Positions 7,071 to 8,427 of a stretch of 20,661 nucleotides of DNA are shown one piece after another (position 1 is the stretch's first letter; every line of letters begins with the position of its first letter). The position numbers and the translations under genes were made by a program. The DNA comes from a virus (Duplodnaviria; Heunggongvirae; Uroviricota; Caudoviricetes): IMG/VR virus record IMGVR_UViG_2872152978_000006, positions 1 through 20,661 of that record; one strand, given 5' to 3'. A model generated the notes under the pieces. It saw only the letters and a list, made by a program, of their open reading frames with translations, ran no database searches and was not told the origin of the DNA.

Positions 7071-7108
7071 GAAGCGGACGAATTGTTGGGCAAATATGAG
7101 TTACAGAA

Positions 7109-8026
7109 TCATTCAGGCGAGGCGAAACATGAATAATTTCTTAACTTTCCATGCAGAAGCAACGCCTGACGGCGTAAACTGAAGTGGTCAACAAAAACTG
7201 GCCACCGAGTTAGAGTTTTTCCAGTATCGATTTTCCGATTCGTTTGGGGTAACCCACCGTTATATTCGTGCGGTCTTAGTGCGCTGTAATATCCAACGAT
7301 ATAGTCCGTTATGGCGTGAGCTGCCTCGCTGAAGCTTACGTAACCCACCACCTGCATCCATTCGTTCTTCAGACTCCTGAAGAAGCGTTCCATTGGGCTG
7401 TTATCCCAGCAGTTTCCGCGCCGGCTCATACTCTGTCTGATCTGGTATCGCCACAATAACTGCCGGAACTGCCTGCTCGTATAATGACTGCCCTGATCGC
7501 TGTGGAACATCACCCCGCCGGGCTTACCACGGGTTTCCCATGCCATTTCCAGCGATTTCATGGTGAGCCTGCTGTCCGGCGAGAACGACATGGCCCAGCC
7601 CACTGGTTTTCTTGCGAACAGGTCGAGAACAACGGCGAGGTACGCCCAGCGCTTACCCGTCCAGATACAGGTCACATCACCGCACCACACCTGATTTGGC
7701 TCGGTCACGGCGAACTGCCTTTCAAGGTAGTTAGGGATAGCAACATGTTCATGACCACCACGTTTATACCGGTGAGTCGGCTGCTGACAGCTGACCAGCC
7801 CCAGCTCTTTCATGAGCCTGCCAGCAAGCCAGCGTCCCATCTGGTAGCCTCTCCGGGTTGCCATTGTGGCGATGCTTCTTGCTCCGGCCGAACCATGGCT
7901 GATGCCATGTAGCTCAAGTACCTGACTGCGTAATACAGCCCGTCTGCCGTCTGGTTTTTCAGGACGGTTTTTCCAGTATCTGTAGCTGCTGCGATGAACC
8001 CCGAACACTTGGCAGAGTGTGACCAC
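7109..8026 (-). CDS. IS911-like transposase OrfB (DDE catalytic domain); frame reads through the terminal repeat into flanking DNA
   Basis: 305-aa ORF with IS3-family signature [24 protein letters not shown]; stop at 7109-7111 lies 71 bp outside the IS end at 7180. Confidence 0.8.
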
Positions 8027-8427
8027 AGGATAATGCGCTCTGAGTTTCCCGATTATCGAGAACAGTTCAGGGAGTCTGACATCAAGAGCGCGGTAGCCTT
8101 TTTTAATATTTCATTCTCCATTTCAATGCGTTGTAGCTTTTTCCTCAGCTTACGTATTTCGATTTGTTCTGGTGTTATCGGAGAGGCTTTTGGTGTTTTG
8201 CCCTGACGCTCATCACGCAGTTGTTTGACCCATCTTGTCATTGTGGAAAGGCCAACATCCATAGCTTTGGCGGCATCTGCCACCGTGTATTTCTGGTCAA
8301 CAACCAGTTGAGCGGATTCGCGTTTAAACTCTGCGCTAAAATTTCTTTTTTTCATTGGAGCACCTGTGTTGTTCTGAGGTGAGCATATCACCTCTGTTCA
8401 GGTGGCCAAATTCAGTGTGCCACTTCA
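7180..8427 (-). mobile_element. IS911-like element (IS3 family), about 1248 bp
   Basis: Ends TGAAGTGGTCAACAAAAACTGGCC at 7180 and reverse complement of TGAAGTGGCACACTGAATTTGGCC ending at 8427 match IS911 terminal repeats; orfA/orfB arrangement between them. Flanking triplets AAC and GAA are not a duplication. Confidence 0.85.
8053..8355 (-). CDS. IS911-like OrfA (HTH / leucine-zipper protein)
   Basis: Start set at internal Met ([49 protein letters not shown]...), giving a 100-aa product. Confidence 0.85.

Follow-up and report, generated by a model that had tools for sequence, protein, structure and literature searches.

An IS911 copy with a bypassed transposase stop codon between unrelated flanks in a Shigella-type chromosome

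An insertion sequence resembling IS911 lies on the minus strand of the 20,661-nucleotide stretch of DNA analysed here (IMG/VR virus record IMGVR_UViG_2872152978_000006; the window). This locus raises two questions: why its orfB frame continues through the terminal inverted repeat into the adjoining DNA, and why the element is not bordered by a target duplication. The feature is a single IS911 element, of the IS3 family, carried by a Shigella-type chromosome (GCA_002950155.1, record CP026840.1). Very probably this copy is frameshifted, the loss of 1 bp near the end of the transposase gene having caused the stop codon to be missed, and its unrelated flanks are the product of a later rearrangement driven by insertion sequences.

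Identity and boundaries of the element

IS911 belongs to the IS3 group of the IS3 family, has been studied by the Chandler laboratory, and transposes by a copy-out, paste-in mechanism through a circle. Its published length is 1250 bp, as against 1249 bp for the copies found here. In the window, the tips of the inverted repeats were placed by a repeat finder (repeat I2) at 7180 (TGAAGTGG...) and 8427 (...CCACTTCA), giving an element of 1248 bp and bearing out the preliminary description, in which an IS911 of about 1248 bp with an inverted-repeat end at 7180 had been proposed. The terminal inverted repeats are imperfect, start with 5′-TG and end with CA-3′, and read TGAAGTGG... at both tips, as expected of IS911. 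By the published definition, the terminal inverted repeats of IS911 are 36 bp long (PMC2909936). When the element was compared by megablast with 5426 complete E. coli genomes, 4866 of them contained some match. The full-length matches reached an identity of at most 99.6%, spanning 1248 of the 1249 bp of annotated IS911 copies, and all are annotated in RefSeq as "IS3-like element IS911 family transposase". This resemblance is not due to chance and indicates that the element is IS911.

The transposase genes of the element were also analysed (Table 1). In IS911 the OrfAB transposase is produced by programmed −1 frameshifting between orfA and orfB (PMC2909936), and the corresponding fusion frame could be reconstructed across the A6G motif of the window copy. 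With the −1 frameshift, the predicted OrfAB has 415 aa compared with 389 aa in intact IS911; it scored 368 bits against the NCBIfam model NF033516 (transpos_IS3), for which the cut-off is 160 bits, and its OrfB portion contains the DDE domain (Pfam rve, 4.5e-31, plus rve_3). In every testable structural respect other than a stop codon of its own and a target duplication, the element agrees with IS911. It has the terminal repeats, orfA, the A6G frameshift site and the DDE core in common with IS911 as annotated in RefSeq (e.g. WP_086020965.1), at 99.6% nucleotide identity. Unlike the closest RefSeq-annotated copies, however, it is 1 base shorter, bypasses the orfB stop, has its C-terminal 19 residues replaced, carries two private amino-acid changes and lacks the 3-bp target duplication.

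Table 1. Features of the IS911 locus and of the DNA on either side (window coordinates).
Feature	Position	Strand	Observation
Codons 1-17 of an island gene (200 aa), truncated by the IS	7129..7179	plus	Gap-free collinear with L004 to 9880, in CDS 9830-10432 (WP_061321512.1)
Rest of the island gene beyond the IS911 insertion point			Sequence ...AACATCATGTACC
Stop codon used by the shifted frame, 71 nt beyond the element	7109..7111	minus	Frame open across the repeat
IS911 copy, 1248 bp	7180..8427	minus	IRL end at 8427, IRR end at 7180; 99.6% full-length identity to IS911-annotated 1249-bp copies
IRR (right terminal inverted repeat), containing the native orfB stop codon	7180..7215	minus	Alignment and repeat I2
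Native orfB TGA inside IRR, out of frame in the window copy	7188..7190	minus	PGAP CDS closes 8 nt short of the tip
1-bp deletion site: C4 (plus-strand GGGG) versus C5 in intact copies	7246..7249	minus	Only indel relative to the 1249-bp copies
Present orfB frame, 305 codons from the first GTG	7109..8026	minus	rve/rve_3 domains and IS3-family HMM core finish at residue 370
orfA, 100 aa, intact	8053..8355	minus	Pfam HTH_Tnp_1; identical protein in many IS911 copies of Shigella-type assemblies
A AAA AAG slippery heptamer, intact	8098..8104	minus	Programmed −1 frameshift here fuses orfA with orfB; A6G kept in the closest copies
IRL (left terminal inverted repeat)	8392..8427	minus	Same as IRL in all aligned IS911 copies; pairs with 7179-7206
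IS600 3′ part, 563 bp, starting at about position 700 and reaching the right end; 5′ part missing	8428..8990	plus	100% identity with IS600 of L014
IS600 5′ part, absent from the window			Ends ...CTGCTGAA
Tyrosine integrase gene of a lambdoid prophage, 3′ fragment, interrupted earlier by IS600	8991..9462	plus	L015 2501-4528 aligns with window 8991-11015

The programmed frameshift site itself varies among other copies. In L002 (NZ_AP023230.2) and further 1248-bp E. coli IS911 copies (H15-H20), A5G is found in place of A6G; the missing A corresponds to column 359 of alignment A1, and these copies still carry the label "programmed frameshift" from PGAP, the NCBI annotation pipeline.

The 3′ end of orfB

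Alignment of the window copy with the 1249-bp copies revealed a sole indel, the reduction of a C5 run to C4, located 67 nt inward from the right end of the element. In the 1249-bp copies, the CDS annotated by PGAP closes 8 nt from the tip with the TGA in ...TTGTTGACCACTTCA, within the right terminal repeat and not upstream of it as the preliminary description had assumed. The same TGA is present in the window copy, where the native 19-residue tail can still be read together with it in another frame; orfB skips it because the 1-bp deletion in the C run shifts the frame. The native tail is replaced by 45 unrelated residues, of which 23 are specified by codons in flanking DNA, one straddling the tip at 7180 and 22 lying beyond it. 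These are the same 23 codons, closed by the same stop, that had been counted previously. A 2-bp loss near the 3′ end of orfB had been put forward as the cause; the small deletion was found, yet its size is 1 bp. A 2-bp loss would lead into the third frame, which meets a TAA within the element, so that read-through is possible with a 1-bp loss only. The earlier account had also been made to depend on the reference IS911 not being of identical length and equally devoid of an internal stop; the annotated copies used for comparison have 1249 bp and possess the TGA in the repeat. The bypassed stop is a defect of the window copy and provides no ground for excluding it from the IS911 family.

The consequences for the transposase can be outlined as follows. 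An intact IS911 would yield OrfA and, by a −1 frameshift at A AAA AAG, OrfAB, with orfB closing at the TGA in the right repeat. Loss of one C from the C5 run would shift the OrfAB frame from residue 371 onward and leave a tail that is partly encoded by the flank. The conserved core of OrfAB finishes before this point (Pfam domains extend to residue 367 and the IS3 model to 370); the shift leaves the DDE catalytic core and, at the N-terminus, the DNA-binding region (HTH_Tnp_1) unaffected and replaces only the short tail, which is not conserved. An exact-protein look-up with the 305-aa product of the orfB ORF gave no match; the 243-aa product that begins at an internal ATG matched record CP026840.1, in which the corresponding locus is 100% identical to window 1-17840. 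The window copy has two non-synonymous substitutions of its own (A>S and P>Q), which were absent from more than 9000 E. coli matches and would fit a copy that is drifting without selection. We infer from these features that the window copy may be a decaying element, mobilisable at most in trans. A Y>C change beside the first catalytic Asp and the change S98C in OrfA were also considered as decay mutations and were rejected, both being common to all sampled Shigella-type copies.

The C4 state was found to be rare. An 80-nt C4 query centred on the run had an exact full-length match in 2 of the approximately 5077 matching E. coli records, and both were labelled "frameshifted" by PGAP. These two IS911 pseudogene copies (NZ_CP027339.1, 10199-11350, and NZ_CP027310.1, 643052-643497) share the window's C4 state; their loci differ from that of the window, and the chromosomal one is truncated as well. 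Further C4 copies were identified at two loci, L005 and L006, both from one other Shigella-type assembly. The SNPs of L006 are those of a C5 copy, L007, rather than those of the window or L005, which implies either an error or at least two separate origins of the deletion. A search of protein databases with the shifted tail returned mainly short fragments and near-singleton clusters, from which no census can be derived; nearly all of the proteins bearing this tail form single-member clusters. Taken together, these comparisons point to a deletion that is rare, sporadic and recurrent rather than inherited, and some of the calls may be errors.

The possibility of error extends to the window itself. 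It is conceivable, though we consider it doubtful, that the missing C reflects a homopolymer error of sequencing or assembly and that the true element, at 1249 bp, is an intact IS911 whose frame closes normally within the terminal repeat. Homopolymer deletions are a classic residual error in long-read assemblies, and the loss here is of one base from a five-base homopolymer within a repeat that occurs in many copies. Both of the E. coli C4 records, the only ones found, come from one long-read reference-genome project series, and over the 3.3 kb of prophage DNA that it shares with the window, the assembly that contains L005 and L006 lacks a single base at four more places. Other genes of the window, on the other hand, are intact, including those of IS2, the IS66-type element and the prophage, and the two private substitutions are unlikely to be long-read artefacts and are consistent with relaxed constraint.

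Far less probable is a functional C4 variant or sub-lineage that transposes in Shigella, in which the catalytic core would be kept and a new flank-encoded tail acquired at each site. The catalytic core is indeed intact, and C4 copies occupy three loci in two assemblies (the window, L005 and L006), L006 having a clean 3-bp duplication, GCA. The SNPs of L006, however, group it with a C5 copy, the assembly that holds it and L005 appears prone to deletion errors, and intact copies in the same cell could have mobilised such elements in trans; the near absence of the form from E. coli and the single-member clusters of its proteins argue against it as well. If it were true, the variable tail could change transposase stability, cis preference or regulation. 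The alternative raised in the preliminary description, that IS911 lacks a native stop and that its transposase always ends in flank-encoded residues, can be dismissed with near certainty: in every copy the right end is traversed by an open +1 frame, and small ORFs leaving IS911 do enter the protein databases, yet all C5 copies examined end at the TGA of the right repeat, 8 nt from the tip and with the identical tail ...NSNSVASFC, and the C4 sequence was matched fully in so few of the E. coli records.

Single-base deletions affect several IS911 copies and prophage genes of GCA_002968185.1 (L005, L008, L010). Among them are losses in G runs of the IS, at positions 426 and 912, and the Dam and KilA-N genes are split; the explanation is either pseudogenisation on an extensive scale or indel errors that remain from long reads.

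Flanking DNA and the missing target duplication

Up to position 7179, the left flank aligns collinearly and gap-free with a P4-like island present in approximately 490 E. coli genomes, in which the 200-aa gene that is cut short in the window is uninterrupted. A plus-strand ORF (7096-7182) had been suspected of being the first, cut-off part of the following island gene, and this proved correct: its in-frame ATG at 7129 is the annotated start of WP_061321512.1 (L004, 9830), and its TGA stop consists of the first three bases of the IS. The rest of the 200-aa gene and the remaining 4 kb of the L004-type island are absent from the window. The right flank consists of IS600 and then integrase sequence. 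Comparison of both flanks with relatives, which had been proposed as a check, thus indicates that they were never contiguous, the left one lying inside an island gene and the right one inside IS600.

Target duplication is the footprint of a simple insertion rather than a property of the element. The triplets beside the window IS911 are AAC (7177-7179) and GAA (8428-8430), so that the 3-bp duplication is missing. This difference had been noted before and taken as a sign of rearranged flanks, an interpretation that agrees with the island gene on the left and IS600 on the right. Copies without target duplication are not unusual here: among the sampled IS911 copies, 6 of 11 lacked the duplication and 5 of 11 had it. 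For the window copy, the duplication would be missing because the two flanks were never adjacent. Neither IS911 junction was contiguous in the 5426 complete E. coli genomes or in PLSDB plasmids, apparent full-coverage matches consisting of two separate pieces. A relative that seemingly covers much of the window (H31) was likewise made up of non-collinear pieces and was set aside as uninformative on contiguity.

Loss of target duplications by recombination between insertion sequences or by adjacent deletion is common (PMC11708052). Two such routes can be envisaged for the window. Two IS911 insertions, one in each target, may have recombined by deletion or inversion; alternatively, an IS911-adjacent deletion may have taken out the DNA between. 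Either route would leave one IS911 with mismatched flanks. Like the duplication-less copies described in PMC11708052, the window IS911 joins two segments that are not adjacent in relatives; unlike them, it has as its second segment the interior of another insertion sequence, IS600. Patterns were constructed for the reciprocal junctions: in one, IS911 precedes AAC and the remainder of the island gene, and in the other it comes after GAA, with which the 5′ part of IS600 closes. Neither was present in exact-pattern scans of species-representative genomes and JGI metagenomes, collections that do not contain the rest of the source genome.

Several other features of the junctions and the surrounding DNA were recorded. 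The triplet just outside the right end of IS911 at 7177-7179, GTT in the orientation of the IS, also occurs at the otherwise unrelated L005 locus, probably by coincidence (1 in 64). At the opposite junction, an ORF of 181 codons on the plus strand (8402-8947) begins with a GTG in the IS911 left terminal repeat and continues in frame into the truncated IS600 orfB, its product being MAKFSVPLQNQT followed by FAPTAPNQVW...; this hybrid is a junction artefact, and an exact-protein look-up found no gene on record with an identical product. In the same island as the IS911 left flank, 3 kb from IS911, a complete IS2 of 1331 bp (2954-4284, minus strand) retains its 5-bp target duplication ACTCA (2949-2953 and 4285-4289). 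Rfam matches above the gathering score were obtained on the plus strand for int-alpA RNA (1264-1331), the Hfq-binding RNA isrK (5785-5862) and C4 antisense RNA (5925-6012), in keeping with a P4-like satellite island that carries ash, AntA and AlpA genes. Further to the right, an IS66-family element (12269-14601, plus strand) with three intact ORFs (126/133, 115 and 512 aa) is adjoined on both sides by prophage early-region fragments, each with a PerC-family gene, and forms another IS-bounded junction. IS911 and IS600 have expanded in Shigella, and a mixture of IS2, IS600, IS911 and IS66-type elements such as that of the window has been described there (PMC7373316).

Significance for annotation

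The IS911 copy of the window is already known and ordinary, and nothing about it departs from the known biology of insertion sequences. The finding matters mainly for annotation: the appropriate label is that of a frameshifted IS911 copy situated at a rearrangement junction, and gene status should be given neither to the 305-codon ORF nor to the two on the plus strand of 52 and 28 codons, nor to the hybrid ORF at 8402-8947. The locus provides a further example of the breaking up of islands and prophages by IS911, IS600 and IS2 in Shigella-type genomes.
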